Shown here: in pieces, positions 1,658 to 25,194 of the stretch
Position numbering within the stretch: position 1 is the stretch's first letter
How the letters are laid out: the number at the start of each line of letters is the position of its first letter
Assembly: GCA_963662575.1 (NCBI GenBank)
Contig: OY759723.1
Span: 2,696,340 to 2,760,339 of the forward strand
Reading direction: 5' to 3'
Length of the DNA stretch: 64,000 nt
Source: Caldilineaceae bacterium
GTDB lineage: Bacteria > Chloroflexota > Anaerolineae > Caldilineales > Caldilineaceae
Translations under genes and position numbers: made by a program
The notes under the pieces: model-generated
Seen by the model: the letters and a program-made list of their open reading frames with translations, nothing else
The model's database searches: none
Told to the model about the DNA's origin: nothing

Positions 1658-3826
1658 ATGATGAATCCACTGGAATCGGAGTGCCTCGCTTCCTTCGCGG
1701 AAAACTTGCAGAACGACTTCTCAGCGCACATTGGGCGCGGCGAAGCAGAGGCCGCCGAATTGGACCGGTTGCGCGATGCACTGCGCGACACGCTCGACCT
1801 GGGAATTTATGCGCGCGAGGGTATCGAGTGGTACCGGAGCGCCTACGTTGAGGCCTTTCTGTTCATGTACGATACTTCCTTCTATGATCGTGAGGAAGGA
1901 CGTTACCGTATCGACGAGATCCTCGACGACGGCGAGCGCGAGTTCGGCGGGTACGACATTATCCTGCTGTGGCAGTCCTATCCCCGGCTTGGCATTGACA
2001 GCCGCAACCAGATCGATTACTACCGCGACATGCCGGGCGGCTTGCAGGGGCTGCGCGAGGTGGTTGACCGTGCGCATGCGCGCGGCGTGCGCGTCTTCGT
2101 CAACTATAATCCCTGGGACATCGGCACGCGCCGCGAGCCGGGCGCGCCGCCTTATACCGATGCCAGGGGATATCGCGGGAGGTTCCCTGACACCAACGCG
2201 CCCGCGGTGGCCGACGCCGAGGCTCTCGGTGAGGTGATCGAAGCGATCGGTGCGGACGGCGTCTTTCTCGATACGATGGCCTCGGACGACCAGGGGTTTC
2301 GGGCGCCGATGGAGCGGGCCAACCCCAATGTCGTCTTCAACCCGGAGGCCGTGCCCCCGCTCGACGCCCTTTCCTCGATCGCTGGCAGTTGGCTGCAGCG
2401 CAAAACCGCTGTCCCGCCAGACCTATTGACCATCCGCTGGGTGGAGCCGCGCTTCTCCTTTCGAGCTATTGACCGCAACGCCCACGAACACGGCGACATC
2501 ATCCAGAAGGCCTTTTTCCACGGCTGCGGGCAGGTCGTTTGGGAGAACGTCTTCGGCTGGTGGAACCCCTGGCCTGAGGAAGATCGTGCACTGCTGCGTC
2601 GTTGTGTCCGTCTCTTGCGCCAGTACTCGGACGCGTTCCAGGACCAGGGATGGCAGCCCTATGTCGCCACTGAGGTGGAGGGCGTGTACGCGCACCGCTG
2701 GCAAAGCGGTGATCAGGTACTGCATACGTTGATCAACGAGACAGGCGGTCTTGTCGACGGCCCGCTGTTGCGTGCGCCCGCGGCCGCGCCTGACGGCCGC
2801 CCTATGCGCCACTACGACCTATGGAATGGCACAGAAATCGAACCCGATCCGCTAGGTGACGCGCATCTGCTTTCGCTTTCTATGGCCAGCGGCGCGGCGG
2901 GATGTATCGTTTCGGCTCCTGAGGGCATAGACATAGACCTACGATCCGGGTTGGAGGAACCGAAGAAGGAAGGACCCGACGGTATTGACCGCAGGCGCGT
3001 CGGTCTTGCCGACCTGACTCTACGTCCGGTCGGGGCATCGCGCCCGGTCGCGGCTGGTGAAGAACCGGAGGAGATGTGCCAGGTACCTGCGGGCCCCTTC
3101 ATTTTCGGCGTGCGTCACAACAATCGCACGGCGATGGAAGGCGCCTGCTACGGTAAAATGGACCAGCTCTGGGACAAGTACCATCCCAGGGACTTCATCG
3201 ACTTACAAGAATACTGGATCGATCGTACCGAGGTCACGAACGCCTCCTACAGCGCATTTCTCGAACAGACCCGCTACCTGCCGCGCGACCTCACCAACTT
3301 CCTGCGCCACTGGCACAAGCCGGCCGGCAGCGAACGAGAGCCTTGGACATGGAGCCCGCCCGCCGGCAAAGAGCGGCATCCCGTCATCTGGGTGGACCTG
3401 GACGATGCCCGCGCTTACGCGGGCTGGGCGGGCAAACGGCTGCCGCGCGAGGAGGAATGGCAGAAGGCGGCGGGATTTGCCGTGTGGCCCTGGGGTGACG
3501 GCTTTGACCCCTCCCTTTGCAATAGCGGCAGCGACGATACAACCCCTGTCGACCAGTTCCCGGGCGGCGCCAGTTACGTCGGTTGCCTCGATTTGGCCGG
3601 CAATGTCTGGGAGTGGACCGAAAGCGAACGCGACGACGGCCATACGCGCTACGCCATCATCCGCGGGGGCAGCTACTTGAAAATTGAAGGCAGTATCTGG
3701 TACAACGCCAGCGGCGCGCAGCCCAACGACTGCCACGAGAAGATACTGCTGATGTACCCGGGTTTGGACCGCTGCGGCACGGTCGGCTTCCGCTGCGTTA
3801 AGGATGCCGCCCCATCCGCATCGTAG
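1658..3826 (+). CDS. Fusion protein: N-terminal glycoside-hydrolase-like (TIM-barrel-like) region plus C-terminal FGE/SUMF1-fold domain lacking the FGE catalytic cysteines
   Basis: The C-terminal ~240 aa carry WVDLDDARAYAGWAGKRLPREEEWQKAA, GNVWEWTE and RGGSY (FGE-sulfatase fold). The N-terminal part has VFVNYNPWD and GADGVFLDTM strand-like motifs. No signal peptide. Confidence 0.7.
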   Translation: MMNPLESECLASFAENLQNDFSAHIGRGEAEAAELDRLRDALRDTLDLGIYAREGIEWYRSAYVEAFLFMYDTSFYDREEGRYRIDEILDDGEREFGGYDIILLWQSYPRLGIDSRNQIDYYRDMPGGLQGLREVVDRAHARGVRVFVNYNPWDIGTRREPGAPPYTDARGYRGRFPDTNAPAVADAEALGEVIEAIGADGVFLDTMASDDQGFRAPMERANPNVVFNPEAVPPLDALSSIAGSWLQRKTAVPPDLLTIRWVEPRFSFRAIDRNAHEHGDIIQKAFFHGCGQVVWENVFGWWNPWPEEDRALLRRCVRLLRQYSDAFQDQGWQPYVATEVEGVYAHRWQSGDQVLHTLINETGGLVDGPLLRAPAAAPDGRPMRHYDLWNGTEIEPDPLGDAHLLSLSMASGAAGCIVSAPEGIDIDLRSGLEEPKKEGPDGIDRRRVGLADLTLRPVGASRPVAAGEEPEEMCQVPAGPFIFGVRHNNRTAMEGACYGKMDQLWDKYHPRDFIDLQEYWIDRTEVTNASYSAFLEQTRYLPRDLTNFLRHWHKPAGSEREPWTWSPPAGKERHPVIWVDLDDARAYAGWAGKRLPREEEWQKAAGFAVWPWGDGFDPSLCNSGSDDTTPVDQFPGGASYVGCLDLAGNVWEWTESERDDGHTRYAIIRGGSYLKIEGSIWYNASGAQPNDCHEKILLMYPGLDRCGTVGFRCVKDAAPSAS

Positions 3827-3888
3827 GTAGAGGAGAAGAGTTTGGAAGCCGGGCTCCTCGCAGTTCCCATTTCAGTTAAGGAGCGAAG

Positions 3889-4758
3889 ATGACGACCGAC
3901 CTGACACCGGAAGCGCGCATGGCACAACTCACGCAGAATGGCTTCTGCGTCATCGAAAAGGTGGCCGACAGGTGGCTCATGGACAGGACGCGGGCCTGCG
4001 TAGACAAGGCCCTGGCCGAAGTTGACCCCGAACGACTGGCCAAAACCAAGTCCCCCGGCAGCCTGATCGACTCCAACAACTACCCTGAGCTGGCCGATCT
4101 GATAGGCAACCCGCGCGCGCTGGCCGAACTCGACCGCATGGGCGTGAAGGACATTAGGTTCTGGAAGGCGGTGATTATCAGCAAGCCGCCGGGCGGCCCC
4201 CGACTCTACTGGCACCAGGACTGCCTGATGTGGCAGGACCCGCGCGCCTACAGTGACAGGCCGCCGATGATCTTCCTGATGTACTACATGGAGGACACGA
4301 CGCGACAGAACGGCTGCCTGCGCCTTTTGCCCGGCACCCACCGCTACCGTCACATCCTTCACGACATGGGGGAGGCGCACACCAGAGAGATCAACCGCAT
4401 CGACGACCCGGACGACCCGCGTTTCCGCGACTATCCCGGCGAGGTCGATGTGCCGGTCAAGGCGGGGGATGTGGTGGTTGGCGACGCGCGCATGTTCCAC
4501 TCGGCGCACACAAACCTTTCTGACGATAAACGGACGGTGATCACCATCTGGTTTCACCCGTTCTATACCGACCTGCAGGAGCCGACGCAGAGTTGGATCC
4601 ACGACTACATGCACAGGCAGCACGCCAACTGGCCGCAGGAGGCGCTGGCCAAGATCGAGCCGCTCATCCCCGACTATCGCGGCGGGGTCGCGCCGATGGA
4701 GCAGAATCGAATGCCTGATGAGCGCTTGCGCTGGCCCGAGACGGTGGCAGCCGGCTAG
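3889..4758 (+). CDS. Phytanoyl-CoA dioxygenase (PhyH) family Fe(II)/2-oxoglutarate dioxygenase
   Basis: LYWHQDCLMWQD (HxD), PGTHRY, distal His in FHSAHTN; AAGGAG RBS before the ATG. Confidence 0.8.
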   Translation: MTTDLTPEARMAQLTQNGFCVIEKVADRWLMDRTRACVDKALAEVDPERLAKTKSPGSLIDSNNYPELADLIGNPRALAELDRMGVKDIRFWKAVIISKPPGGPRLYWHQDCLMWQDPRAYSDRPPMIFLMYYMEDTTRQNGCLRLLPGTHRYRHILHDMGEAHTREINRIDDPDDPRFRDYPGEVDVPVKAGDVVVGDARMFHSAHTNLSDDKRTVITIWFHPFYTDLQEPTQSWIHDYMHRQHANWPQEALAKIEPLIPDYRGGVAPMEQNRMPDERLRWPETVAAG

Positions 4759-4859
4759 CCGCAAAGCGCCTGCATCGGAGGACCATGCCCGGCGTCCCCG
4801 CGATTTTCATCGGGCTGACAGGACATGTACAAACTCCCAACCCTCCCCAGGAGATAGAG

Positions 4860-5651
4860 ATGAAGATTCTTATCACCGGCATCACCGGCAAGATTGGCCG
4901 CTACCTGGCGCCGTTACTTGCCCGCGACCATGAGGTCTCTGGCATTGACATTCTCCCCTCGGACTGGCCCAGTTCTACCCAGGCCGACCTCTGCGACGCC
5001 GACGCGCTGCCGCCCGTCTTCGAGGGCATGGACGTGGTCATCCATCTGGCTGCCGACCCCCGCCACGAGGTCGAGATCGGCTGGGATGAGCTGACCAACC
5101 CCAACCTGATCGCCACGGCCAGAATGTACGACGCGGCTCACGATGCCGGTGTGGGGAGGGTCATCTTCGCGAGTTCGATGCACGTCATGGGCGCATACGA
5201 GTGGGATGAGCCGTACTTCTCCATCCTTTGCGGCCGCCACGACGGCCTGGACCCGGCCGCCATCCCACTGGTCAAAGGGGATGATCCGGGCAGGCCGGAC
5301 AGCCGCTACGGCGCCACTAAGATATTCGGCGAGTCGTTGGGCCGCTATTACACCGAGGGCGGCAACATCGACCGCCCTGAAGAGCGTCCGATGGAGGTCA
5401 TCTGCGTCCGTCTTGGCACGCTGCCGGCCTCCGATCGTCCCGGTGGTGACTATCGCTCGCTGGTGAGCTGGTTCAGTTATCGCGATGCGGGCGGCTTCTT
5501 TCGGGCCTGCGTTGAGCGGCCTGGCATCAGCTATGAGATCATCTACGGCGCGTCCAACAATAAGTGGAAAATTTACGACACGCCCTACGCGTGGGAGCTG
5601 CTGGACTTCATGCCCGTCGACAGGGCGGAAGACCACTGGCGCAAAGAGTAA
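4860..5651 (+). CDS. Short NAD(P)-dependent SDR (epimerase/dehydratase-like), cassette copy 1
   Basis: MKILITGITGKIG (GxxGxxG) and SRYGATK (YxxxK). The true ATG at 4860 follows CAGGAGA; the upstream extension of ORF 4785 was rejected. Confidence 0.85.
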   Translation: MKILITGITGKIGRYLAPLLARDHEVSGIDILPSDWPSSTQADLCDADALPPVFEGMDVVIHLAADPRHEVEIGWDELTNPNLIATARMYDAAHDAGVGRVIFASSMHVMGAYEWDEPYFSILCGRHDGLDPAAIPLVKGDDPGRPDSRYGATKIFGESLGRYYTEGGNIDRPEERPMEVICVRLGTLPASDRPGGDYRSLVSWFSYRDAGGFFRACVERPGISYEIIYGASNNKWKIYDTPYAWELLDFMPVDRAEDHWRKE

Positions 5652-5701
5652 CCGACATCGCCCCGCCTACACCGCGGCGCAACACGGGAGGACAACCGAT
5701 C

Positions 5702-6598
5702 ATGACAGTTGGAGAAGGCGATTTTCGCTACGAACTGGACGATTCCTGGCCGATACTGCCAGAAGGATGGTCGCTCGGCTCTGTGCCCGATCTGGCGATC
5801 GATTCGCGGGATCGCGTCTTTGTCTTCTGCCGCCATAAACATCCCGTCGTCGCCTTTGAGGCGGAGACCGGGAAATTCATCACCTCCTGGGGTGAAAATG
5901 AATTCACTGAGCCGCACGGCATCTTCATCGACGCCGACGACTACGTGTGGGTCACCGACCGGCAGGAGCACGTGGTCACCAAGCACACGCAGCATGGTGA
6001 GAAACTGCTCGAACTGGGCCGCCGCGGCTGGGCCATGATGACGGTGACGCCCTACGGCACCTCCTTGGACCCGCCCTTCAACATGCCGGCCGGCGTGGCC
6101 ACCGCCGAGGACGGTTGCATCTTCGCGGCCGACGGCTACGGCAACCGCCAGGTCCACCGCTTTTCCGCGGAGGGCGAGCTGGAAGTGTCGTGGGGGACGT
6201 CCGGCCTGGAGCCGGGCCAGTTCGCGCTGGTACACAATATCGGCATCGACACGCAAGGCCGGGTTCTTATCTGCGACCGCGAGGCCAACCGCATCCAGCT
6301 CTTCGATCGCGATGGGAATTTCATTACTATGTTTGAAGATGTACACCGGCCTGGCGACGTGTACTGCAGCCCCGACCAGTTCGTCTATGTCGCCGAACAG
6401 GGCAGCGCATTTGGCAAGGGGCCTCTCCCCTGCGGCATCTCCATCTTCCATGAATCGGGCGAGCTGGTCTGCCGCTTCCGCGGCCCCGAAACTGGACTGC
6501 GCATGCCGCACGGCATCTGGTGTGATTCGAAAGGAAACATCTTTGTGGCCGAGCTGGGCGAAGAAGGCAACCGTGCGCGCAAGTTTGTCAAAGTGTGA
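5702..6598 (+). CDS. NHL-repeat six-bladed beta-propeller resembling peptidyl-alpha-hydroxyglycine alpha-amidating lyase (PAL), cassette copy 1
   Basis: Motifs PHGIFID, DGYGNRQVHRF, PGQFALVHNIGID, CDREANRIQLF and MPHGIWCD. ATG at 5702 inside ORF 5564. No signal peptide. Confidence 0.75.
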   Translation: MTVGEGDFRYELDDSWPILPEGWSLGSVPDLAIDSRDRVFVFCRHKHPVVAFEAETGKFITSWGENEFTEPHGIFIDADDYVWVTDRQEHVVTKHTQHGEKLLELGRRGWAMMTVTPYGTSLDPPFNMPAGVATAEDGCIFAADGYGNRQVHRFSAEGELEVSWGTSGLEPGQFALVHNIGIDTQGRVLICDREANRIQLFDRDGNFITMFEDVHRPGDVYCSPDQFVYVAEQGSAFGKGPLPCGISIFHESGELVCRFRGPETGLRMPHGIWCDSKGNIFVAELGEEGNRARKFVKV

Positions 6599-6794
6599 AG
6601 CGAGTAGGTGCGAAGCGCGGGCTGTCAATAGCATGAGAGCGCCGCTTCCCCTGTCGAAAAAAGCGATCTGGCGGTCGCGACGGGGGGAGGACGGAATTGC
6701 TATCTGCTGGTCCTGACCTTCGTTGGCGAATCCAAAATGATATCGCAAGAAACCGGCATATAAATAGGATGATACGCCCACCAGGAGACAATCT

Positions 6795-7586
6795 ATGAAA
6801 ATTCTACTCACCGGCATCAGCGGTACAGTCGGCAGCTTGCTGGCGCCCGAACTTGGTCGCGACCACGAAGTGTCCGGCGTGGACCTGCGTCCCTCCGACT
6901 GGCCGAACGCGACGCAGGCCGACCTCTGCGACCCGGACGCCCTGCCCCCCATCTTCGAAGGCATCGACGTAGTCGTCCACCTGGCCGCTGACCCGCGGCA
7001 CGAGGTCGAAATCGGCTGGGAAGAGCTCACCAACCCGAATCTGATCGCCACCGCGCGCATGTACGACGCTGCCCATGACGCGGGCGTGCGTCGGGTCATC
7101 TTCGTCAGCTCGATGCACACAATGGGCGGTTACGAGTTTGACGAGCCTTACTTGTCGATCGTTTCCGGCCGCGTGGACGGCCTCGACCCGGCCTCCATTC
7201 CCCTGGTCAAGGGCGATGACCCGGCCAGGCCGGACAGCCGCTACGGGGCGACCAAGATATTCGGCGAGTCCCTGGGCCGCTACTATACCGAGGGCGGCAA
7301 CATCGACCGCCCTGACGAGCGCCCGATGGAGGTCATCTGTGTACGGCTTGGAACGTTGCCCCGGTCCAACCGGCCTGAAAAGGACTACCGTTCGCTGGTG
7401 AGCTGGTTCAGCCGGCGCGACGCGGTCGGCTACTTCCGGGCCTGCGTTGAGCAACCCGGCATCAACTATGAGATTATCTACGGTGCATCCAACAATACGT
7501 GGAAAATCTATGACACACCCTACGCCTACAATCTGTTGAATTTCGTTCCTCAAGACAACGCTTCAGAACACTGGGGCAAGGAATAA
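6795..7586 (+). CDS. Short NAD(P)-dependent SDR (epimerase/dehydratase-like), cassette copy 2
   Basis: Paralog of 4860-5651 with the same GxxGxxG and YxxxK motifs. Confidence 0.85.
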   Translation: MKILLTGISGTVGSLLAPELGRDHEVSGVDLRPSDWPNATQADLCDPDALPPIFEGIDVVVHLAADPRHEVEIGWEELTNPNLIATARMYDAAHDAGVRRVIFVSSMHTMGGYEFDEPYLSIVSGRVDGLDPASIPLVKGDDPARPDSRYGATKIFGESLGRYYTEGGNIDRPDERPMEVICVRLGTLPRSNRPEKDYRSLVSWFSRRDAVGYFRACVEQPGINYEIIYGASNNTWKIYDTPYAYNLLNFVPQDNASEHWGKE

Positions 7587-7600
7587 CAGGAGGTCTACCA

Positions 7601-8479
7601 ATGCTGACCGTTGGACATGGCGATTTTCGCTTCCAGCAGGACGATACCTGGCCCACTCTGCCAGAAGGGTGGATTATGGATCATCCTTCCGGTATTGCGG
7701 TTGATTCGCACGATCGGGTCTATGTATTTAATCGCAACAAGCACCCAATGATCGTCTTCGAGGCCGACACTGGTGAGTTTGTTACATCCTGGGGCGAAGG
7801 CGAATTCAAGGAGCCGCACGGCATCTTCATCGACGACGAAGACCATGTTTGGACCACTGACCGCAATGACCACACCGTCGTCAAGTACACGCGCTACGGC
7901 GAGAATCTGCTCGAACTGGGCACGCGCGGCTGGGCCAATATGACGGTAACGCCGCAGGGCACGACGCTCGATCCGCCGTTCAACATGCCGGCCGGCGTAG
8001 CCATCGCCGAGGACGGCTGCATCTTTGTTGCCGACGGTTATGGCAACCGGCAGGTTCATCGTTTCTCAGCGGGAGGCGAATTGGAGCTCTCGTGGGGAAC
8101 GTCGGGGACGGAGCCGGGTCAGTTCGCGCTGGTGCATAACATCGGCATCGACACGCAGGGGAGAGTACTGGTATGTGACAGGGCAAACCATCGCATTCAG
8201 TTTTTCGACCACGAAGGGCAGTTCATTCAGATCTGGGACGATGTCCAAGCACCAGGCGGTGTCTACTGCAGTCCCGAGGGCGTGATCTACGTCGCCGAAC
8301 AGGGCGGTGGTGGTTCCGTCTCGATCTTCAGTGAAGACGGCGAACTGATTTGCCGCTTTACCGGCGAGAAAGCCGGCCTGCGCGGTGTGCACAGCGTCTG
8401 GATCGATTCGAAGAAGAACCTCTTCATTTCGGAGCTGAGTCACCACGGTCATTGTGTGCAGAGATATGCCAAGATCTAA
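7601..8479 (+). CDS. PAL-like NHL beta-propeller, cassette copy 2 (most diverged copy)
   Basis: PHGIFID, DGYGNRQVHRF, VHNIGID and DRANHRIQFF are retained, but the last motif is GVHSVWID instead of MPHGIWCD. 292 aa. AGGAGG RBS. Confidence 0.75.
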   Translation: MLTVGHGDFRFQQDDTWPTLPEGWIMDHPSGIAVDSHDRVYVFNRNKHPMIVFEADTGEFVTSWGEGEFKEPHGIFIDDEDHVWTTDRNDHTVVKYTRYGENLLELGTRGWANMTVTPQGTTLDPPFNMPAGVAIAEDGCIFVADGYGNRQVHRFSAGGELELSWGTSGTEPGQFALVHNIGIDTQGRVLVCDRANHRIQFFDHEGQFIQIWDDVQAPGGVYCSPEGVIYVAEQGGGGSVSIFSEDGELICRFTGEKAGLRGVHSVWIDSKKNLFISELSHHGHCVQRYAKI

Positions 8480-8824
8480 CTGCGGGAAGTGCCGAGCCAG
8501 CCAGTCGGCATCCTGAGAGCGCGGCCTCCTACTGTTGAGCGAAGCTATGGCAGACCGAGATGGGGGGGTTGCCCCGCCTGACCAGGCAGGGGTGAGACGG
8601 AAACGCGCCCGCACTTTGCAGACACGCCAGACCTATCTATCTCGCAGGCAATGCGGGGTCGTGAATGTGCCAGAATCCCAAGAGTCCTGGCTCAGGCTAC
8701 GGCTGCACGACGCATCCGGAGACAGCCTCTGCATCGCAGCCGATCCGCCGGCAGATGGCGCACACGCCCAGAGACAGAAAGTGACTCACCGCCCCATATT
8801 GGGTATATGGTATTTTTCGCGCGC

Positions 8825-8853
8825 TTGACATCGCTGTAATTCCTATGGATAAT
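8825..8853 (+). promoter_or_regulatory. Near-consensus sigma70-like promoter (TTGACA-N17-GATAAT) about 30 nt upstream of cassette copy 3
   Basis: Read directly in the 403-nt spacer between copy 2 and copy 3. Confidence 0.4.
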
Positions 8854-8882
8854 TCACTCAAAACCCCCTGCAGGAGACAGTC

Positions 8883-9674
8883 ATGAAAATTCTCATCACC
8901 GGCATCACCGGCACGATCGGAAGTTTCCTGGCGCCTGAATTAGCGCGCGACCACGATGTATACGGCATCGACCTTCTGCCCTCGGACTGGCCCAACTCCA
9001 CCCAGGCCGACCTCTGCGACCCGGGCGCGCTGCCGCCCGTCTTCGAAGGCATGGACGTGGTCATCCATCTGGCTGCAGACCCCCGCCATGAGGTCGAGAT
9101 TGGCTGGGATGAACTGACCAACCCCAACCTGATTGCCACTGCCCGCATGTACGACGCGGCCCACGACGCCGGTGTGCGCCGGGTTATTTTCGCCAGTTCG
9201 ATGCACGTAATGGGCGGTTATGAGTTTGACGAGCCGTACCTGTCAATCGTTTCAGGCCGCCTTGACGGCCTGGACCCGGCCTCCATTCCACTGGTCAAAG
9301 GTGATGATCCTGGCAGGCCGGACAGCCGCTACGGCGCCACCAAGATCTTCGGCGAGTCTTTGGGCCGCTACTACACCGAGGGCGGCAACATTGACCGCCC
9401 TGACGAGCGCCCGATGGAAGTCATCTGCGTCCGCCTTGGCACACTGCCGCCATGGAACCGGCCCGGCAGTGGCTACCGTTCGCTGGTGAGCTGGTTCAGC
9501 CATCGCGATGGGGCAGGATTCTTTCGCGCCTGCGTTGAACGGCCCAACATAAACTACGAGATCATTTACGGCGCATCCAACAATACCTGGAAGATCTACG
9601 ACACGCCCTACGCCTGGGAGCTGCTGGATTTCATGCCTGTTGACAGCGCCGACGACCACTGGCGTAAGGAGTAA
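8883..9674 (+). CDS. Short NAD(P)-dependent SDR (epimerase/dehydratase-like), cassette copy 3
   Basis: Paralog of 4860-5651, roughly 30 differences in 263 aa by eye. Confidence 0.85.
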   Translation: MKILITGITGTIGSFLAPELARDHDVYGIDLLPSDWPNSTQADLCDPGALPPVFEGMDVVIHLAADPRHEVEIGWDELTNPNLIATARMYDAAHDAGVRRVIFASSMHVMGGYEFDEPYLSIVSGRLDGLDPASIPLVKGDDPGRPDSRYGATKIFGESLGRYYTEGGNIDRPDERPMEVICVRLGTLPPWNRPGSGYRSLVSWFSHRDGAGFFRACVERPNINYEIIYGASNNTWKIYDTPYAWELLDFMPVDSADDHWRKE

Positions 9675-9725
9675 CTTTTACCCCTGCGCGCCGCGGCTGC
9701 GCGCCACATCGGAGGACAACAGATT

Positions 9726-10622
9726 ATGACTGTTGGATATGGCGATTTTCGCTATGAACTGGACGATTCCTGGCCGAAAGTGCCAGAAGGATGGTTGCTC
9801 GGTTCGGTGCCCGACGTGGCGATCGATTCGCGCGACCGCGTCTTTGTCTTCTGCCGCCACAAGCACCCGGTGGTGGCGTTTGAGGCTGATACCGGAAAAT
9901 TTATCACGTCCTGGGGTGAGGGTGAATTCACCGAGCCGCACGGCATCTTTATCGACGCTGAGGACCATGTGTGGGTCACCGACCGGCAGGAGCACGTTGT
10001 CACCAAGCACACGCAGCACGGTGAAAAGCTGCTCGAACTGGGCCGCCGCGGCTGGGCCATGATGACGGTGACGCCCTACGGCACGACCCTGGATCCGCCC
10101 TTCAACATGCCGGCCGGCGTGGCCATTTCCCAAGACGGCAGCATTTTCACCGCCGACGGTTATGGTAACCACCAGGTCCATCGTTTCTCGGCGGAGGGTG
10201 AGCTTGAGTTGTCCTGGGGGACCTCCGGCACCGGGCCGGGACAGTTCGCGCTGGTGCACAATATTGGCATCGACACGCAGGACCGGATCCTGATCTGTGA
10301 TCGAGAGTCGAGCCGCATCCAGATCTTCGACTACGAAGGGCAGTTCATCACGATGTGGGAAGACGTGAACGGCCCCGGCGATGTCTACTGCAGCCCCGAC
10401 CAATTGGTCTACGTCGCCGAGCAGGGCGGCTCGTTGGGCAAGGGCCCGGCCCCGATCGGCGTCTCGATCTTCCATGAGTCGGGCGAACTGGTCGGCCGCT
10501 TCCGCGGGACGGAGACCGGCTTGTCAATGCCGCATGGCATCTGGTGCGATTCGAAGGGAAACATATTTGTAGCGGAGCTGGGCACCGAGGGAAACAAAGC
10601 CCGCAAGTTGGTCAAGATTTAG
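9726..10622 (+). CDS. PAL-like NHL beta-propeller, cassette copy 3
   Basis: Very close paralog of 5702-6598. All five motifs are retained (PHGIFID, DGYGNHQVHRF, VHNIGID, DRESSRIQIF, MPHGIWCD). Confidence 0.75.
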   Translation: MTVGYGDFRYELDDSWPKVPEGWLLGSVPDVAIDSRDRVFVFCRHKHPVVAFEADTGKFITSWGEGEFTEPHGIFIDAEDHVWVTDRQEHVVTKHTQHGEKLLELGRRGWAMMTVTPYGTTLDPPFNMPAGVAISQDGSIFTADGYGNHQVHRFSAEGELELSWGTSGTGPGQFALVHNIGIDTQDRILICDRESSRIQIFDYEGQFITMWEDVNGPGDVYCSPDQLVYVAEQGGSLGKGPAPIGVSIFHESGELVGRFRGTETGLSMPHGIWCDSKGNIFVAELGTEGNKARKLVKI

Positions 10623-10742
10623 CGGCGAGCGGCATAGAACCGCGGACTGTCCACAGACTGAAGAAGCGCGGAACGTTAGGAAATGGGTTGAATCCCTTCT
10701 TGAAACCGCGTTTACCGAGCCTTACGAGGAAGAACTGAACCG

Positions 10743-12074
10743 ATGAACGCGACAGCACCGCCGATAGCCGGTCTCTGCACGTATGCGCAGGGCGGCAAGC
10801 CGGGCTTCAGTGTTGAACGCACAGTACAGTTGCTGCGGCGCTATCTGTTTGTCGAGAGCCAGACGATGCGCTGTCTGGTCGCCCATCTGAACGGCGTGCC
10901 GGAGTGGGAGGTGAAGTGCGGCCTCTCGCTCCATCTGTGGCAGGACGCAGAACATTGCACCTGGCTGCGCGACCGGGTCAAGGAGATGCGAACGCCGCCC
11001 CTCCACCTGGACCGCATCCCTGACCCGGCCCTGGACGCCTTCTTCCAGGAGTTGATCCGTTCCCGCAACACGTTTGAGCTTCTGACCGGCGTATACCGGG
11101 TGCTCAAACCGGCCAGCATCGCGGCGATGCGGGGTCATCTTGCCGAAGCGAATCCGCTGGCCGATCAACCTACGCGGCGCCTGCTCAGGTTCATACTGCT
11201 GGAGGAAGAAGAGCAGCTCGCCTGGGGCGATCTCGCGCTGCACAGCTTGGTCAGTAAAGAAGACAATAGAGCAGCGGTCGAGGCAGGGGAACAGTGGACC
11301 GCGCATTTGCAGGCATACCTGGATGCCGCAGGCGGCATCGCCGCCGATGGTGAACGGGCAACGGAGAACGAGCTGCCGCCGGCCCGAGCAGTGGAGCCAT
11401 TCAACCCAATCCGGACACCGCAAAGAGATGAACGCTTTAACCGCGTGTGGCATTCACGCGGGCGCCCCCCTAACGCCGACATCTCCGCCAGCGAGCGAAA
11501 CTGGTTTCAACTATACATGCGGCTGACTGAAATGCACGTCCCTGAACTGATGGCATTGATCATCTACGACTGGGACGACCAACCCTGGGCGTTTTACCAC
11601 GACATGGCTCGCCAGCTCTGGGATGAGGCGCGCCACGCCATGATGGGCGAGATTGCGTTCGAATTGAGTGGTTTGGATTGGGCGGCGGTTCCGCACGAAA
11701 TCAGCTTTGGCGAATTTCCTAATACGCAACTCGAGCCCGCGGACCGACATTGCCTTCTGTGGGGGATCGAACAGGGGCTGATGAAACCGGACGGGAAACA
11801 ACGTGAGTACAAGCTCGCCCGCGAATCGGGCGACCCGCTGTCGATTACGTTTCAAGATTTTGATTGGGCTGACGAGGTACTGCATGCCCAGATAGGACGC
11901 AGATGGCTGCTGCCAGCCTTTGAATCGATGGAGGCAATGCAGCAGCGCTATGAAGAAGTCCTAGCGCGCTTTCAGGCTATCCTCGACCAGGATCAAGCGT
12001 TGCCAAGAGCAGAGTGGTGGGATGCCTTTTATCAGCAGGTACCTCGCCAAGAAAAACAGGAGGAACCAGTTTGA
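10743..12074 (+). CDS. Hypothetical protein, possible ferritin-like / dimetal-carboxylate fold
   Basis: Helical, with E/H-rich motifs LWDEARHAMMGE and DWADEVLHAQIGRRW. No signal peptide. The family assignment is tentative. Confidence 0.4.
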   Translation: MNATAPPIAGLCTYAQGGKPGFSVERTVQLLRRYLFVESQTMRCLVAHLNGVPEWEVKCGLSLHLWQDAEHCTWLRDRVKEMRTPPLHLDRIPDPALDAFFQELIRSRNTFELLTGVYRVLKPASIAAMRGHLAEANPLADQPTRRLLRFILLEEEEQLAWGDLALHSLVSKEDNRAAVEAGEQWTAHLQAYLDAAGGIAADGERATENELPPARAVEPFNPIRTPQRDERFNRVWHSRGRPPNADISASERNWFQLYMRLTEMHVPELMALIIYDWDDQPWAFYHDMARQLWDEARHAMMGEIAFELSGLDWAAVPHEISFGEFPNTQLEPADRHCLLWGIEQGLMKPDGKQREYKLARESGDPLSITFQDFDWADEVLHAQIGRRWLLPAFESMEAMQQRYEEVLARFQAILDQDQALPRAEWWDAFYQQVPRQEKQEEPV

Positions 12075-12209
12075 CGAGTTGTTCGGTACTTTGCCTGGCG
12101 CTGACGCCTGGCGGGGAACTCGAACGCATTGAACCAGACCATTAGCCAGAGGTGAATCCATCCAATTGACCCACAGGTATTTTCTCATTTCCACAAAGGA
12201 GGAGGAGAG

Positions 12210-14273
12210 ATGAAGCAGACCAAGTTTTCGTGGCTGTTGGGGATCGTGATGGTAGTAGCTCTTGTACTTTCGGGGTGTGCCGGCGCAGCCGAGCCTGCCG
12301 AACCGGCCGAGGAAATGGCCGCCCCAGCCGAGGAGGCGGAAGAGTCTTCCGAGCTACCTCAGATTGTCCCGATTGAAGGGCCTGACATCATCCTCGATGA
12401 GGCAATGTGGCCCACGGCATTCAGTGAAGCGCCGATGCTGGCTGAGATGGTTGCAGCAGGCGATCTGCCGCCGGTCGAGGAACGCCTGCCGTCAGATCCG
12501 ATGGTCATCAAGCCTTTGAATGAAATCGGCAAGTACGGCGGAACCTGGCGGCGCGGCTTCACTGGCCCGGCCGACGGCGAGAACATGATGCGCATCAATA
12601 ACTCGTCGAGGCTGCTCGCCTGGGACTACTCCGGTTCCTACATCGTACCCAGCCTGCTCGCGGGTTGGGACATTCAGGATGACAGTCGCAAGTACATCCT
12701 CTATCTCCGTGAAGGCGCCAAGTGGTCCGATGGCATGCCATTCACCGCCGACGATTTCCTCTTCTGGTACGAGGACGTCGCCCTGAACGAGGATATCTTC
12801 CCCAGCCCGCCGCCAGAAATGGTTATCGCCGGCGAACCGGGCCTGATGGAAAAGATTGACGACTATACGATCTCCTACACGTTTAAGGAGCCGTATCCCC
12901 TTTTCCTCGACATTCTTGCAGGCCATAACATGGTGGCGGCTGCGCCCGAGGGCAGCCTGGGAACAGGTGGCGGCGGATACGCGGCCAAGCATTACATGAG
13001 CCAGTTCCTTCCGAAATACTCCTCTGAGGAGGAAGTGACCGCAATGGCCGAGGAGTTGGGATTCGAGAGTTGGCTGGATATGTACCTCTTCCATTCCTAT
13101 CCCGCCCGCAACGCTGATCTGCCCGTGATGAGCCCCTGGGTCACAGATCGCCCCGTCATCGATCCGATCTGGGTGATGAAGCGCAACGCCTACTACTGGG
13201 CGGTCGACACGGAAGGCAATCAGCTCCCTTACATTGACGAGATCGTGATCAATCTTGCCGAGGATAGAGAAGTCCTCCTCCTGCGCGCCCTCGCAGGAGA
13301 AATTGACTTCCAGGGTCGCCACATCAGTATCTCGAGGCTGCCCGTCCTTATCGAGAACATGGATACAGGCGACTACCGGGTCGATATCGGCCGTGGATTC
13401 TGTCATTCGGCCGGTTTCCACTTCAACCACAGTTACGACGGTGACGCCGAGGTCCAGCAGTGGATACGAAACGTAGAGTTCCGCCGCGCCCTCTCTCTGG
13501 GGATCGATCGCGACCAGATCAACGAGGCCTACTTCCTGGGGCTGGGCGTGGGTGGCTCGGTGATGTGTTCACCCGACCTGCCCTCAACCGCAGGTGAAGA
13601 GTTCGTGACAAGGTGGGCTACCCACGAGCCCGATCAGGCCAACGAAATGCTTGACGCCATCGGGCTGACCGAGATGGACGACGAAGGTTACCGGCTGCGG
13701 ACGGACGGCTCCGGAGACCGGCTGCGCATTGAGATTGGCATGGTTGCAGGCGGCAACGAGCCGATTGCCGAAATGGTGAAAGACCACTGGAAGGATATCG
13801 GCATCTGGGCAGACCTCAAGGCCCAGGAGCGCAGTCTGTTCGAGACGGAAGCTCGCGCCAACAAGCACCAGATCGGAATTTGGGGCAACGGCGGCGCTTC
13901 GCAACTCTGGCTCTACCCCCGCCACGTCTTGCCTGTAAATACGAACGAGGCGTACATGGGACCGGAGATCGCCAGATGGTTCGTCAGCGGCGGCGAGGAT
14001 GGCATGGCGCCGCCCTATCCAGAGATGGAAAGGGCGCTCGAACTGTTCAGGCAGGGCGCCTCCGTGTCCGCCGAAGAGCGCAATAAGATCGGCCAGGAGA
14101 TCTGGAGTCTCGTGGTTGACCAGGTTTGGAGCATGGGTACGGTCGGCCAGTCAGCAGGAGTCTCCGTTACCAAGAACAACATGGGCAATGTTCCGCGGCG
14201 CGGCTGCCCGGCTCAGCACTGCCGGACGCCTGCCAGCGGCCATCCGCCGTCCTGGTACTTCACCGATCAGTAG
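12210..14273 (+). CDS. ABC transporter substrate-binding lipoprotein, family 5 (peptide/nickel/opine type), importer 1
   Basis: Lipobox LSGC after a signal peptide, an acidic Ala/Glu/Pro linker, 687 aa, and genomic context with DppBCDF-like genes. AAAGGAGGAGGAG RBS. Confidence 0.85.
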   Translation: MKQTKFSWLLGIVMVVALVLSGCAGAAEPAEPAEEMAAPAEEAEESSELPQIVPIEGPDIILDEAMWPTAFSEAPMLAEMVAAGDLPPVEERLPSDPMVIKPLNEIGKYGGTWRRGFTGPADGENMMRINNSSRLLAWDYSGSYIVPSLLAGWDIQDDSRKYILYLREGAKWSDGMPFTADDFLFWYEDVALNEDIFPSPPPEMVIAGEPGLMEKIDDYTISYTFKEPYPLFLDILAGHNMVAAAPEGSLGTGGGGYAAKHYMSQFLPKYSSEEEVTAMAEELGFESWLDMYLFHSYPARNADLPVMSPWVTDRPVIDPIWVMKRNAYYWAVDTEGNQLPYIDEIVINLAEDREVLLLRALAGEIDFQGRHISISRLPVLIENMDTGDYRVDIGRGFCHSAGFHFNHSYDGDAEVQQWIRNVEFRRALSLGIDRDQINEAYFLGLGVGGSVMCSPDLPSTAGEEFVTRWATHEPDQANEMLDAIGLTEMDDEGYRLRTDGSGDRLRIEIGMVAGGNEPIAEMVKDHWKDIGIWADLKAQERSLFETEARANKHQIGIWGNGGASQLWLYPRHVLPVNTNEAYMGPEIARWFVSGGEDGMAPPYPEMERALELFRQGASVSAEERNKIGQEIWSLVVDQVWSMGTVGQSAGVSVTKNNMGNVPRRGCPAQHCRTPASGHPPSWYFTDQ

Positions 14274-14491: not shown

Positions 14492-15481
14492 ATGCTTGCT
14501 TACCTTGCCCGTCGCGCCGTCTTTGCCATCTTTACGTTGTGGGCTGTCTCGGTGCTCTCCTTCATCATCATCCAGCTCCCTCCCGGGGACTTTGTCGACG
14601 CCTACATGGCTCAATTGGCTGTCATGGAGACCGATGTCTCGGAGCAGCAGATGGAGGCCATGCGCCGCCAGTATGCCCTGGACAGGCCCATTCACGAACA
14701 GTACCTGAGATGGATTGGAAATATGGTCCAAGGCAACTTCGGCGTATCCATGCTGTGGAAGCAGTCGGTCCGCGATGTGATCGGAGACAGGCTTGCGATG
14801 ACCATGGCCGTCTCACTGGGGGCGGTCCTGCTTACCTGGGCCATTGCCGTGCCCATCGGAATCTATTCGGCAGTGCGTCAGTATTCGATCGGCGATTATG
14901 TTTTCACCTTTGTCGGTTTCATCGGTCTGGGGGTACCCAATTTCCTTCTGGCGCTGGTGCTTATGTACCTGGGTTTCTACCTTTTCGGGGCGAATGTTGG
15001 CGGTCTGTTTTCGCCGGAATTCCAACTGGAACCGTGGAGTTGGGCCAAAGTGAAGGACTTGCTCTATCATCTCCCCCTGCCCGCCTTTGTTGTCGCCCTC
15101 AGCGGTACCGCCGAGTTAATCCGGGTACTGCGTGCGAATCTGCTTGACGAGCTGCGCAAGCCCTATGTGATCACGGCGCGGGCGATGGGGCTGGCCGAGC
15201 ACCGCCTGATCCTGAAGTTTCCGGTGCGCGTCGCTCTCAATCCCTTTGTCAGCACGATCGGCTATCTGTTGCCCTACATCCTGTCCGGCAGCGTTATCGT
15301 CTCGGTCGTTTTGAGCCTGCCGACGGTTGGGCCGATTCTCCTTGGTTCCCTTATCGCACAGGATATGTTCCTGGCTGGGACGATTGTCCTGATGCTCGGC
15401 TCGATGACCGTCATCGGCACTTTTTTGTCCGACATGCTGCTGATGTGGATCGATCCCCGTATTCGTCTGGGTATGATTTAG
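14492..15481 (+). CDS. ABC transporter permease (DppB/OppB-like), importer 1
   Basis: MLAYLARRAVFAIFTLWAVSVLSFIIIQLPPGD N-terminus and multiple TM segments. Confidence 0.9.
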   Translation: MLAYLARRAVFAIFTLWAVSVLSFIIIQLPPGDFVDAYMAQLAVMETDVSEQQMEAMRRQYALDRPIHEQYLRWIGNMVQGNFGVSMLWKQSVRDVIGDRLAMTMAVSLGAVLLTWAIAVPIGIYSAVRQYSIGDYVFTFVGFIGLGVPNFLLALVLMYLGFYLFGANVGGLFSPEFQLEPWSWAKVKDLLYHLPLPAFVVALSGTAELIRVLRANLLDELRKPYVITARAMGLAEHRLILKFPVRVALNPFVSTIGYLLPYILSGSVIVSVVLSLPTVGPILLGSLIAQDMFLAGTIVLMLGSMTVIGTFLSDMLLMWIDPRIRLGMI

Positions 15482-15538: not shown

Positions 15539-16681
15539 ATGACCACTGAGCATAGACTAGGCGTAGGTGAAGATCTTGTAACTGTCGACAGCGAAGAGCG
15601 AATCTTCGTTGCCGGTCAGATGCAACTGATGTGGTGGCGGTTTCGCAAGCACCGCGTCGCAGTTGCGGCAACGGTAATTGTCGCTGCCTTCTACATCGTT
15701 GTGCTGGGCGCTGATTTCTTTGCCTACACGGACCCTGAATCGACCGAAGCCTACCGCTCCTTGATGCCGCCTCAGCCTGTTCGCTTCTTTGACGACGGTA
15801 GATTCAGCCCCCATGTCTACCAAGTCGATGGAAAACGGGACCTAAGAACATTCAAGCGAGTCTACGAGGCAAATCCTGACCGCAAGTTTCGGGTTCGCCT
15901 CTTTGCACGCGGCTACAAATACGATTTCCTGGGATTCATTCCGTCTGACCTCCATCTGTTCGGCGTTGAGGGCGCCAGCGTGGAGGAGTCTCTGTTCATC
16001 CTTGGAACGGACTCGTTGGGCCGCGATGTCTGGTCCCGGCTCATACATGCCTCCCGCACCTCCCTGACGATTGGACTGATCGCGGTTGCACTCAGTCTCG
16101 TGCTGGGGGTGATTCTAGGTGGGATTTCGGGCTTTTACGGAGGTGTCGCAGATAACATTATCCAGCGCCTCATCGAGATACTTCGCTCGATTCCTACCAT
16201 TCCGTTGTGGATGGGGCTGGCTGCAGCCGTGCCCAGACAGTGGAGCGTTGAGCAGGTCTACTTTGCCATTACAATCGTTATCGCGTTGCGGGGCTGGACG
16301 GGTCTGGCACGAGAGGTGCGCGGCCGCTTCCTTTCACTGCGCGAGGAGGATTTTGTGACAGCCGCGGAATTGGCCGGTTGCAGCCGCAAACGCATCATTT
16401 TCCGCCATATGGTGCCCTCCTTCCAGAGTCACATCATCGCTACCGTCACCTTATCTGTGCCTGCCATGATTCTGGCAGAGACGGCGTTGAGTTTTCTCGG
16501 GCTGGGTCTGCGCCCGCCTGCCATCAGTTGGGGGGTCATGCTCCAGCAAGCACAGAATGTAGAGACGGTCGCGCTGTCGCCCTGGCTGCTGTTGCCAGCG
16601 ATCCCCGTCGTTGTCGTGATCCTGGCCTTCAACTTCATGGGAGACGGATTGCGAGACGCAGCCGATCCTTATGGGATTTGA
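15539..16681 (+). CDS. ABC transporter permease (DppC/OppC-like with N-terminal extension), importer 1
   Basis: TM-rich, LGTDSLGRDVWSRL motif, C-terminal MGDGLRDAADP. Confidence 0.9.
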   Translation: MTTEHRLGVGEDLVTVDSEERIFVAGQMQLMWWRFRKHRVAVAATVIVAAFYIVVLGADFFAYTDPESTEAYRSLMPPQPVRFFDDGRFSPHVYQVDGKRDLRTFKRVYEANPDRKFRVRLFARGYKYDFLGFIPSDLHLFGVEGASVEESLFILGTDSLGRDVWSRLIHASRTSLTIGLIAVALSLVLGVILGGISGFYGGVADNIIQRLIEILRSIPTIPLWMGLAAAVPRQWSVEQVYFAITIVIALRGWTGLAREVRGRFLSLREEDFVTAAELAGCSRKRIIFRHMVPSFQSHIIATVTLSVPAMILAETALSFLGLGLRPPAISWGVMLQQAQNVETVALSPWLLLPAIPVVVVILAFNFMGDGLRDAADPYGI

Positions 16682-19968: not shown

Positions 19969-20033
19969 CGTTTACGCTCCAGTGTCGAATGAAAGGAGAA
20001 AAGGGGAGAGAAGATCCCTCCCCACGTGTAGTT

Positions 20034-21852: not shown

Positions 21853-21948
21853 ATGAAGTCGCCTCCTCTTTCACAGTCTGGAATTATGAAACAGGGCGAG
21901 AAATGGACGGGCGCGCCAAGTACAGAAGGGACAGTTCGCCGCCGAACG

Positions 21949-21985
21949 GAGGACGCATCTCCTCTCTGCGGGGAAATGCGTCCTC
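21949..21985 (-). other. Intercistronic stem-loop after the SBP gene (10-bp stem GAGGACGCAT/ATGCGTCCTC, 17-nt loop)
   Basis: Complementarity read directly; lies between the SBP stop (22006) and the permease start (21852). Confidence 0.5.
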
Positions 21986-22005
21986 TTGAATGAGAATATA
22001 CTCCG

Positions 22006-23613: not shown

Positions 23614-23686
23614 CTTCTGGCCTCCTGGTGTCTTTGATGGATTTTACGGTTGGAAACATCGATGCAGAAAACGGCAAGACAACATA

Positions 23687-23716
23687 ATTTTATTACATTG
23701 GCAACGAGTCGGTCAA
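23687..23716 (-). promoter_or_regulatory. Sigma70-like promoter candidate (TTGACC-N18-TAAAAT) about 70 nt upstream of the importer-2 SBP gene
   Basis: Read directly in the AT-richer part of the 416-nt spacer. Confidence 0.35.
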
Positions 23717-25103: not shown

Positions 25104-25194
25104 GCTTTGACTCCTCCGTACAAAAAGTTGGCGCCGCTTTCGTACACCGCATCGCATTCTGCCCGAATTTTTAAGGCTGGAGCTTTAGACGACT

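Follow-up and report, generated by a model that had tools for sequence, protein, structure and literature searches.

A stretch of 64,000 nucleotides (nt) from the Caldilineaceae bacterium assembly GCA_963662575.1 (contig OY759723.1, positions 2,696,340 to 2,760,339; referred to here as the window) carries three consecutive cassettes, each made up of a gene for a short-chain dehydrogenase/reductase (SDR) followed by a gene for an NHL propeller. The array is best interpreted as an old, stably kept tandem of three paralogous two-gene catabolic modules, which would have arisen by duplication in place and whose members probably differ in substrate specificity; we put the probability of this interpretation, history and specificity taken together, at about 0.7. 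An earlier, sequence-only reading of the same DNA had described the cassettes as a snapshot of a recent amplification in which one copy is diverging.

Organisation of the array

The three units lie head-to-tail on the plus strand, at 4860–6598, 6795–8479 and 8883–10622 (start-to-start distances of 1935 and 2088 nt), and the open reading frames (ORFs) and their translations show that all six genes are intact. The positions of the units agree with those given in the sequence-only reading. Cassette 1 consists of SDR1 (4860–5651), encoding a uronate-dehydrogenase-like extended SDR of 263 amino acids (aa) and preceded by an AGGAG ribosome-binding site, and NHL1 (5702–6598), encoding a six-bladed NHL propeller of 298 aa that resembles peptidyl-alpha-hydroxyglycine alpha-amidating lyase (PAL). 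Homology to NHL3 and a GGAGG ribosome-binding site place the true start of NHL1 at 5702 and not at the GTG at 5564 of a longer ORF. Cassette 2 consists of SDR2 (6795–7586, 263 aa) and the divergent propeller paralog NHL2 (7601–8479, 292 aa), and cassette 3 of SDR3 (8883–9674, 263 aa) and the PAL-like propeller gene NHL3 (9726–10622, 298 aa). A Shine-Dalgarno sequence (AGGAG or GGAGG) is present 6–9 nt before the ATG of each of the six genes, and the gap between the SDR and NHL genes inside each cassette is 14–51 nt.

Homology between the units runs from approximately 27 nt upstream of the SDR start, and so includes the ribosome-binding site, to the NHL stop codon. Spacer 1 (6599–6794, 196 nt) and spacer 2 (8480–8882, 403 nt) had been called unrelated, which is correct save for these last ~27 nt before the SDR start; outside them, BLAST gave no match of either spacer to the other or to anywhere else in the window. 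An origin of the spacers as decayed genes or repeats was rejected, there being no significant blastn or blastx signal. GC content across the locus is uniform (0.56–0.63), and an Rfam scan of the whole window at gathering thresholds gave zero matches.

Divergence between the cassettes

Over ~1.7 kb the three copies share 71–85% of their nucleotides, which is far beyond chance. SDR1 and SDR3 are the closest SDR pair, with 87.8% aa and 85.4% nt identity (32 of 263 residues differ, where about 30 had been counted by eye), while SDR2 is 81.4% identical to SDR1 and 85.2% to SDR3 at the amino acid level. The propellers follow the pattern that had been described, with NHL1 and NHL3 close (85.2% aa, 83.0% nt identity) and NHL2 different from them at about a third of positions (65.6% and 67.0% aa identity, respectively). 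NHL2 is also 6 aa shorter, the net result of a 7-residue gap in the (F/L)GKGP(L/A)P loop and one extra N-terminal residue.

Synonymous divergence (dS, NG86 method) is 0.61 for SDR1/SDR3 and 0.72 for NHL1/NHL3, and rises to 0.83–0.89 for SDR2 against SDR1 or SDR3 and to 1.02–1.06 for NHL2 against NHL1 or NHL3. The ratio of nonsynonymous to synonymous divergence (dN/dS) between paralogs is 0.11–0.14, or 0.23–0.24 in comparisons with NHL2.

Identical runs of up to 29 nt between copies had been taken to make the locus prone to recombination. The 29-nt run shared by SDR1 and SDR3 (ggcatggacgtggtcatccatctggctgc, at 5025 and 9048) exists, and in a codon-shuffle test it is at chance level (P = 0.79). 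It is not the longest: a run of 56 nt in NHL1 and NHL3 (6005–6060 and 10029–10084) exceeds the codon-shuffle expectation (P = 0.0025) and sits where the gene is most conserved and encodes the active site; there it could be a small conversion tract or a mere product of constraint. Since this is the only run above expectation and it lies in a conserved region, the evidence for gene conversion inside the window is weak. The argument for instability is likewise weak for this genome, in which the runs do not exceed 56 nt and the copies are 71–85% identical; in its favour are the gene conversion and the variable gene content that are seen in relatives (below).

Phylogeny of the cassettes

Relatives were collected from homolog searches, from the contigs encoding the homologs and from a scan of GTDB species representatives. 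The close relatives include "Chloroflexi bacterium TSY" (L005) and metagenome-assembled genomes (MAGs) of the Caldilineaceae; related loci are referred to here by L numbers. The GTDB scan also recovered Poribacteria, Latescibacterota and Dehalococcoidia, which suggests a sponge microbiome setting.

Neighbour-joining trees (200 bootstraps) were constructed separately for the SDR and NHL proteins, and in both the nearest outside sequences fall outside a single clade made up of all copies from the locus. In the propeller tree, the NHL2-type sequences (window, L007 and L003_Na) form a clade with 100% bootstrap support, which is separate from a group containing L003_Nb with L005, the NHL1 clade (87%) and the NHL3 group. 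The SDR tree likewise separates an SDR2-type clade (window, L004, L007, L006_Sa and L001_Sa) from an SDR1/SDR3-type clade. The two trees are congruent, and the unit of duplication was therefore the whole cassette, as had been proposed.

NHL1, NHL2, NHL3 and SDR2 each have orthologs in L006, L007, L001 or L003, and the copy-2 propeller lineage is also found in L003 (the NHL2 orthologs of L007 and L003 are 90% and 79% identical to it, respectively). As these orthologs of individual paralogs are in other species-level genomes, the youngest duplication is older than the split of several species. The window has dS values of 0.16–0.23 to L004 and of 0.5–1.1 to L006 and L007. Ortholog dN/dS is 0.01–0.13 for every copy (comparisons with L004, L006, L007, L001 and L003), and all six genes are under purifying selection.

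These results bear on the claim that the amplification is recent. An array caught in the act of innovation, amplification and divergence, with unstable copy number and one copy only now diverging, would agree with the head-to-tail layout, the greater divergence of copy 2, the different array contents of relatives and the gene conversion in L003. Such an array would be expected to consist of near-identical copies (dS ~0), whereas the copies here have dS values of 0.6–1.06, 71–85% nt identity and unrelated spacers; the 29-nt run is at chance level, purifying selection acts on all of them, and each has its own orthologs in other species, so that the tree of orthologs and paralogs refutes this explanation. 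We regard it as highly improbable, and the word "recent" has to be dropped.

The sequence-only reading had also mentioned old, independently acquired paralogs as an alternative; the copies are indeed old, and they arose in place and were not independently acquired. Assembly of the three cassettes by separate horizontal transfers might be suspected from the several catabolic and transporter genes in the region and from the insertion sequence (IS) elements in the arrays of relatives, but it is very improbable given that the SDRs and the NHL proteins are each monophyletic relative to the nearest outside sequences, with congruent trees, and that the GC content is uniform and the same flanks are found in related genomes.

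The history that best fits the trees is one in which an ancestral SDR–propeller pair would have been duplicated twice, in place and as a whole unit. The first duplication, which came before the branching of the L003 lineage, would have given rise to cassette 2 on one side and to the common ancestor of cassettes 1 and 3 on the other, and the second would have separated cassette 1 from cassette 3 before L006 and L007 diverged, probably before L001 as well; both would thus predate the divergence of the present Caldilineaceae species. Since then the array appears to evolve by birth and death, with gene loss, insertion of IS elements and an intron, occasional conversion and a decayed fourth cassette.

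Several points weigh against this history. The grouping of SDR1 with SDR3 in the window and L004 is weakly supported (49%), and dS between SDR1 and SDR3 of the window (0.61) is lower than that between the SDR3 orthologs of the window and L006 (1.1); some concerted evolution of the SDRs is therefore possible and may blur the order of events. The dating is rough, as the NG86 dS values are near saturation and the trees are neighbour-joining trees only.

States of the array in related genomes

The sequence-only reading had proposed a comparison of copy number in relatives as a check, and this comparison shows that array content varies, with one to three intact propeller genes per relative. A sister-strain contig (L004, ena:ERZ25072076:ctg232861_5x_l) has the same three cassettes as the window (SDR1–NHL1, SDR2–NHL2, SDR3–NHL3) in the same order, at 91–95% nt identity, and its spacer 2 is 88% identical to that of the window. 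The chromosome-level MAG L007 (OZ241377.1) has SDR1–NHL1, SDR2–NHL2, an internally deleted SDR3, propeller scraps, a paralogous substrate-binding protein (SBP) gene and permease gene, and NHL3. In a second chromosome-level MAG, L006 (OZ242384.1), a C-terminal remnant of SDR1 is followed by NHL1, SDR2, SDR3 and NHL3, NHL2 having been lost. L001 and L002 contain SDR2, SDR3 and NHL3; L003 (the 5-Mb contig s27.ptg000029c) contains an SDR, an NHL2-type propeller and an NHL3-type propeller; and L005 contains an SDR split by an IS1595 transposase, followed by one propeller.

The same multi-copy arrays are thus recovered in independent long-read-style assemblies, and the collapse or expansion of repeats that had been raised as a risk is not borne out. 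An array created by the assembler is practically negligible as an explanation: nothing specific speaks for it beyond the general risk posed by repeats, while the copies differ at 15–29% of nucleotides with no shared run above 56 nt, the three-cassette order recurs in the independent contig L004, and multi-copy arrays are present in the MAGs L006 and L007 and in the 5-Mb contig of L003.

Gene conversion between tandem propellers is clear in L003. The two propeller genes (10001–10879 and 11219–12118) belong to the NHL2 and NHL3 types, the two oldest paralog lineages, and have a dS of 0.27, tracts of 96–98% identity and an identical run of 100 nt.

Other rearrangements are specific to single loci. 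In L007, the segment between the truncated SDR3 and NHL3 (3478–8000) contains propeller fragments (4178–4377) together with a paralogous SBP_bac_5 gene and permease gene, which are 74–76% identical to the transporter genes of the window; the segment resembles what would be left, after decay, of a larger duplication comprising a fourth cassette and transporter. An ISAs1-type transposase (DDE_Tnp_1_assoc and DDE_Tnp_1 domains) lies between the two SDR genes of L001 (7867–9003); the element is absent from L002, a contig that co-occurs with L001, where the spacer carries 77-nt repeats instead (8338–9160). The IS1595-type transposase that splits the SDR gene of L005 is at 8210–9164.

In L004, NHL2 is interrupted by a 620-nt, ORF-less group II intron in the sense orientation (7836–8455, corresponding to ~8180 of the window). 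The intron starts with GTGCG and ends with CTAC, and its domain V/VI matches Rfam RF00029 (66.8 bits, E 1e-12). Its removal gives back the exon sequence of the window, in which NHL2 has no intron, exactly; because of the intron, the gene caller reports the L004 NHL2 as truncated to 230 aa.

Paralog-specific changes in the propellers

We counted the positions that are constant within a paralog clade but not the same from clade to clade. Those in the D-A and B-C loops, which in propellers make up the side bearing the catalytic residues, were assigned to the top face. Of the 15 fixed differences between NHL2 and the rest, 11 are in the inferred top-face loops, against 37% expected (P = 0.005); the same holds for 11 of the 17 that distinguish NHL1 from NHL3 (P = 0.019). 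Specific to NHL2 are a 7-residue deletion in the B-C loop of blade 5 and the replacement of Met268, two residues before H270, by Gly. A caution against over-reading these counts is that the top face was set by the DSSP strand order of the model and not by coordinates.

Changes clustered on one face, invariant catalytic residues and dN/dS well below 1 are the pattern expected of sub- or neofunctionalised paralogs. Our best reading of the modelled positions is that the cassettes would have three related but distinct substrate specificities and that their divergence is probably old and completed. The suggestion that copy 2 is diverging towards a new specificity accordingly stands as regards its divergence and the changes consistent with such a specificity that it has accumulated, and not as regards a process still under way.

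Relationships of the SDR

The three SDRs match the Pfam Epimerase family (E 1e-20 to 1e-21), and their best matches among PDB sequences are the uronate dehydrogenases 3rft (E 1.2e-22) and 3ay3 (E 1e-22). The AlphaFold2 model of SDR3 is of moderate confidence (pLDDT 70.5), with low confidence at residues 107–149 and 187–202; the top five matches in a fold search with this model were uronate dehydrogenases (Udh; TM 0.72, 27–29% identity). The motifs GxxGxxG (TGITGxIG), SS-x-H and YxxxK (YGATK, aligned to Y136 and K140 of Udh) are present, as is a Y-R motif aligned with Arg174 of Udh. All three copies read SSMH where the Udh motif is SSNH, in which the Asn, on beta5, stabilises the carboxylate. 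The Udh of O. granulosus, with Ile at the Asn position, is active (PMC4476818). The best NCBIfam match of all three SDRs is Azf (NF041293), at 133–141 bits against a cut-off of 400 bits.

Relationships of the propeller

The propellers match the Pfam NHL family at 54–82 bits. Their whole-protein scores for SGL (PF08450) of 32.7–37.3 bits are above the cut-off of 26.3, yet none of the individual stretches reaches significance, and the scores for the NHL model are higher. The AlphaFold2 model (pLDDT 92.8) has six four-stranded blades, and its best fold match in Foldseek is the PAL domain of peptidylglycine amidating monooxygenase (PAM; 3fvz, E 1e-18, TMq 0.83, 24% identity), which outranks the RNA-binding TRIM and Thin NHL domains. 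Sequence searches of the PDB give a different order: TRIM and Thin NHL domains are on top, and the repeat-rich TRIM and Pizza proteins outrank PAL, which aligns to residues 49–287 of 298 (E 1e-23). The TRIM matches arise from the generic repeated blade motif. Close homologs are labelled "PAL family protein" at NCBI.

In an alignment of 32 family members, H72, Y146, H178 and H270 are invariant and R193 nearly so, and all five residues are found in every paralog and ortholog of the array. They were mapped onto PAL by the boundaries of three HMMER alignments (49–287 to PAM 562–803, 49–158 to 562–666 and 185–287 to 698–803). The residues that we take to form the PAL site then fall as follows: His585 on H72, Tyr654 on Y146, His690 on 177/178 (H178), Arg706 on R193, Met784 on 268 and His786 on H270. 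In PAL, His585, His690 and His786 are the Zn triad, Tyr654 is catalytic and Arg706 binds the carboxylate. From these boundaries we strongly infer that H72, Y146, H178, R193 and H270 correspond to the Zn/Tyr/Arg site of PAL. H270 is followed by Gly in NHL1 and NHL3 (HGIW) and by Ser in NHL2 (HSVW).

The family of PAL-like propellers is large: a profile search of 1.84 billion representatives gave 20,184 clusters at 50% identity (E <= 1e-30), a count that is inflated by generic NHL-repeat proteins, with giant multi-NHL-repeat proteins swamping the top of the list. A literature search on bacterial PAL-like enzymes or NHL-type lactonases found nothing usable.

Proteins with NHL repeats are among those classed as eukaryote-like in sponge symbionts, and together with the TRIM and Thin NHL domains at the top of the PDB sequence search this could suggest that the propellers are non-enzymatic repeat proteins for interaction with a sponge host, their pairing with an SDR being incidental. 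That they should have such a role is scarcely credible. The translations show no visible signal peptide at the propeller N-termini, the genes are tightly spaced as in an operon and were co-duplicated with an enzyme gene, the His, Tyr and Arg residues at the inferred PAL positions are invariant, and PAL provides a nearly full-length alignment and the best fold match, the TRIM matches reflecting a generic motif.

The SDR–NHL pair beyond the array

The outgroup locus L086 has a single SDR–NHL pair (SDR 58% and NHL 69% identical to the window copies), and the pairing therefore predates the triplication. Adjacency of the two genes is kept in L001–L004, L006, L007 and L086. Among 78 genomes with NHL homologs of up to 51% identity, essentially none had this SDR within 8 kb; a metagenome scan with the SDR profile gave no relative above 53% identity and none with an adjacent NHL gene; and the closest outside SDR, P0130 (77%), has no adjacent NHL gene. 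The pairing is lineage-restricted.

A Pfam census of the flanks of 70 distant NHL homologs (MR_MLE 5, HpcH 2, Glu dehydrogenase 8, Mo-hydroxylase 5) gave no consistent partner gene and did not fix the chemistry. NHL-only tandem arrays of 2–4 divergent copies, 35–50% identical to NHL3, are found in L009, L011, L012 and L018 (Dehalococcoidia/Chloroflexota MAGs) and in L035 (a Rhodospirillales MAG), and the PAL-like NHL family appears to have expanded in tandem repeatedly. In a Dehalococcoidia contig (L089, 6001–10500), a 57%-identical propeller gene adjoins a znuABC-type zinc importer and a Fur-family (Zur-like) regulator, which may be a tie to a zinc requirement. A DinB_2 gene lies upstream of this propeller gene, and DinB_2 is also adjacent in L090.

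Genomic neighbourhood

Upstream of the array, on the plus strand, are a gene of the D-2-hydroxyacid dehydrogenase family (617–1621; PF02826, E 4e-32), which also adjoins the array in L001, L002 and L004, a gene for a 722-aa protein (1658–3826) and, directly before cassette 1, a gene for a PhyH-family Fe/2-oxoglutarate dioxygenase (3889–4758; PF05721, E 1.7e-24), which is likewise upstream of the array in L001, L002 and L004. The 722-aa protein has a C-terminal FGE-sulfatase-type (EgtB-like) domain (PF03781, E 1.8e-37), and its N-terminal ~470 aa have no family match, with only a 14.6-bit hint of GHL6; the gene is kept in L004 and is not at the locus in L001 and L003.

Downstream, a plus-strand gene for a 443-aa protein with a weak match to the ferritin-like DUF455 (10743–12074; PF04305, 28.7 bits, below the cut-off of 34.3) separates the array from a transporter in the window and L004; in L001 and L002 this position holds short ORFs only. 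The transporter, an Opp-type ATP-binding cassette (ABC) importer, is encoded on the plus strand by an SBP_bac_5 (Opp/Dpp/Nik-type) substrate-binding protein gene (12210–14273; PF00496, E 2.7e-55), two Opp-type permease genes (14492–15481 and 15539–16681) and two ATPase genes (16730–17764 and 17817–18860), the last four assigned from their translations and the Pfam labels of the L004 orthologs. The same Opp-type transporter, with its SBP_bac_5 gene, follows the array not only in the window but also in L001–L007. Arrays in relatives are also found near sugar-type ABC components and a BNR-repeat protein.

On the minus strand the neighbourhood goes on as a catabolic island (18958–26412), with a further extended SDR (18958–19968), the SBP_bac_5 gene of a second Opp-type system (22006–23613), a GFO_IDH_MocA oxidoreductase (24030–25157) and a second PhyH-family gene (25195–26412).

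Spacer 2 contains a near-consensus, sigma-70-like promoter site on the plus strand (TTGACA-17-GATAAT, 8825–8853, 11/12 matches) 30 nt upstream of SDR3. Two such sites occur in the region against 2.6 expected, and this one is a consensus match only. In L007, approximately 70 nt around the site are kept in two places, before SDR3 and before NHL3. Transcription of cassette 3 on its own, from this predicted promoter, may therefore occur.

Proposed chemistry

The tentative first choice for the function of the cassettes, which we hold at somewhat under even odds, is a dehydrogenase followed by a ring-opening or bond-cleaving propeller. Each SDR would be an NAD-dependent enzyme of the Udh/Azf type. 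Its substrate would be an anionic, sugar-like compound, probably imported by the adjacent Opp-type transporter, and oxidation at the anomeric (hemiacetal) carbon would turn this compound into a lactone. The PAL-like Zn propeller would then open or cleave the SDR product, by hydrolysis or elimination, using the conserved His3-Zn/Tyr/Arg site, in which the Arg would hold the carboxylate of the substrate.

Udh and Azf, the characterised relatives of the SDR, both form a delta-lactone by oxidising an anionic sugar at its anomeric carbon. The carboxylate-CH-X-C(=O) arrangement of an aldaro-1,5-lactone resembles the carboxylate-CH(OH)-NH-C(=O) of the PAL substrate, so that binding and opening of such a lactone by a PAL-type site, with its carboxylate-binding Arg, would be plausible. 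Sponge-associated Caldilineae are reported to be rich in genes for the degradation of carbohydrates and uronic acids (PMC6306507).

There are a number of points on the other side. The SDRs are only ~28–30% identical to Udh, have two insertions relative to it (about 116–139 and 166–176) and contain Met in place of the carboxylate-stabilising Asn of most Udhs. The propellers belong to the PAL/NHL family and not to the SMP30/gluconolactonase family of the known dehydrogenase–lactonase pairs. No aldonate dehydratase, aldolase or kinase was found among the genes examined beside the window array, and the neighbours of the L086 pair (an aminotransferase, a CocE/NonD hydrolase and a racemase) hint at amino-acid-type rather than sugar substrates. 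We know of no characterised enzyme of this exact SDR and PAL-like pair, and the substrate, the order of the reactions and the reaction type are all deduced.

The L086 neighbours fit better with a different chemistry under the same history, in which the propellers would be PAL-type lyases that cleave N- or O-substituted alpha-hydroxy-carboxylates. The substrates would be carbinolamides (N-acyl-alpha-hydroxyglycines, ureidoglycolate-like compounds) made by PhyH from imported peptides or N-acyl-glycines; the SDR would take as its substrate either the hydroxylated intermediate or the aldehyde or glyoxylate that is set free, and glyoxylate would be processed by the 2-hydroxyacid dehydrogenase. This accounts well for the retention of the full inferred PAL catalytic set, including the carboxylate-binding Arg, for PAL being the best structural match, for the peptide/opine type of the transporter, and for the PhyH and 2-hydroxyacid (glyoxylate-reductase-like) dehydrogenase genes just upstream; some distant homologs are also near Ldh_2, Mo-hydroxylase or malate-synthase genes. 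The PhyH and 2-hydroxyacid dehydrogenase genes are, however, single-copy and not at the L003 array, and the coupled partner is a Udh/Azf-type SDR, the known members of which oxidise sugar hemiacetals. Moreover, the genes that were examined within the initial ~26 kb of the window included no PHM-type copper monooxygenase, the PhyH dioxygenase being upstream instead, and the position of Asp787 is Gly. On balance we consider this chemistry rather unlikely, while the present data do not separate it from lactone opening.

A broader formulation, which we rate as unlikely, is that the cassettes represent an undescribed bacterial two-step pathway, in three specificity variants. The SDR would make or consume an intermediate (a carboxylated hemiacetal, hemiaminal or lactone), and a true PAL-type site, with His3-Zn, a Tyr base and a carboxylate-binding Arg, would cleave or open it. 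In that case the large bacterial PAL-like family would gain a first functional handle, and some of the "eukaryote-like NHL proteins" of sponge symbionts would be metabolic enzymes.

Significance

As an evolutionary object, the locus is an ordinary tandem array of paralogs, long past the amplification stage. Its value is that of a natural experiment, with three intact paralogs whose catalytic residues are conserved and whose differences lie around the inferred pocket; the relatives add states with members lost, broken up by IS elements, carrying a group II intron or made alike by gene conversion. To our knowledge, no pairing of a Udh-like SDR with a PAL-like propeller has been characterised. 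Should the propeller be the partner that opens the ring or cleaves the bond, bacterial PAL homologs would acquire a role, and caution would be called for in host-interaction readings of NHL-repeat genes in sponge symbionts. The locus would deserve more attention if PAL-type chemistry were demonstrated.

Comparison with known systems

Tandem arrays can evolve by duplication and divergence and by birth and death, including the innovation-amplification-divergence model. The window array resembles that model in the tandem duplication of a whole unit, in the divergence of one copy and in the loss and conversion seen in relatives, and differs from it in being at a late, stabilised stage, with saturated dS and cross-species orthologs, rather than a transient amplification.

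Among enzymes, the SDRs are most like Udh (EC 1.1.1.203; 3rft, 3rfv and 3ay3), an extended/intermediate SDR of ~265 aa that is their best match in both sequence and fold; apart from the differences given above, their downstream partner is an NHL propeller, which is outside the known oxidative uronate pathway. The haloarchaeal NAD-dependent glucose-6-phosphate dehydrogenase Azf forms a lactone by oxidation of an anionic sugar at C1. Its alignment with the SDRs is full-length (residues 3–257 to model positions 5–250), but the scores are under the equivalog cut-off and the SDRs are therefore not equivalogs of Azf. The propellers share with PAL, the catalytic core of PAM (3fvz and 5wm0), the six-bladed NHL fold and a nearly full-length alignment. 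Unlike PAL, they are bacterial, stand-alone proteins of ~298 aa, 24% identical to it and genetically tied to an SDR, and the position of the Ca ligand Asp787, as mapped by coordinates, is Gly, or Ser in NHL2.

In known dehydrogenase–lactonase pairs, such as xylB–xylC and sulfoquinovose dehydrogenase with the SGL lactonase, the propellers are of the SMP30/gluconolactonase type. The cassettes would have in common with these pairs a gene for a sugar 1-dehydrogenase followed immediately by a gene for a metal-dependent six-bladed propeller; they differ in that the propeller has an NHL/PAL-type His3 site, whereas the metal site of SMP30 is made up of Glu, Asn and Asp. A literature search for an SDR and PAL-like propeller pair found none. 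The pair is a variation on the combination of a dehydrogenase with a propeller, the SMP30 type of propeller being replaced by one of the PAL/NHL type.

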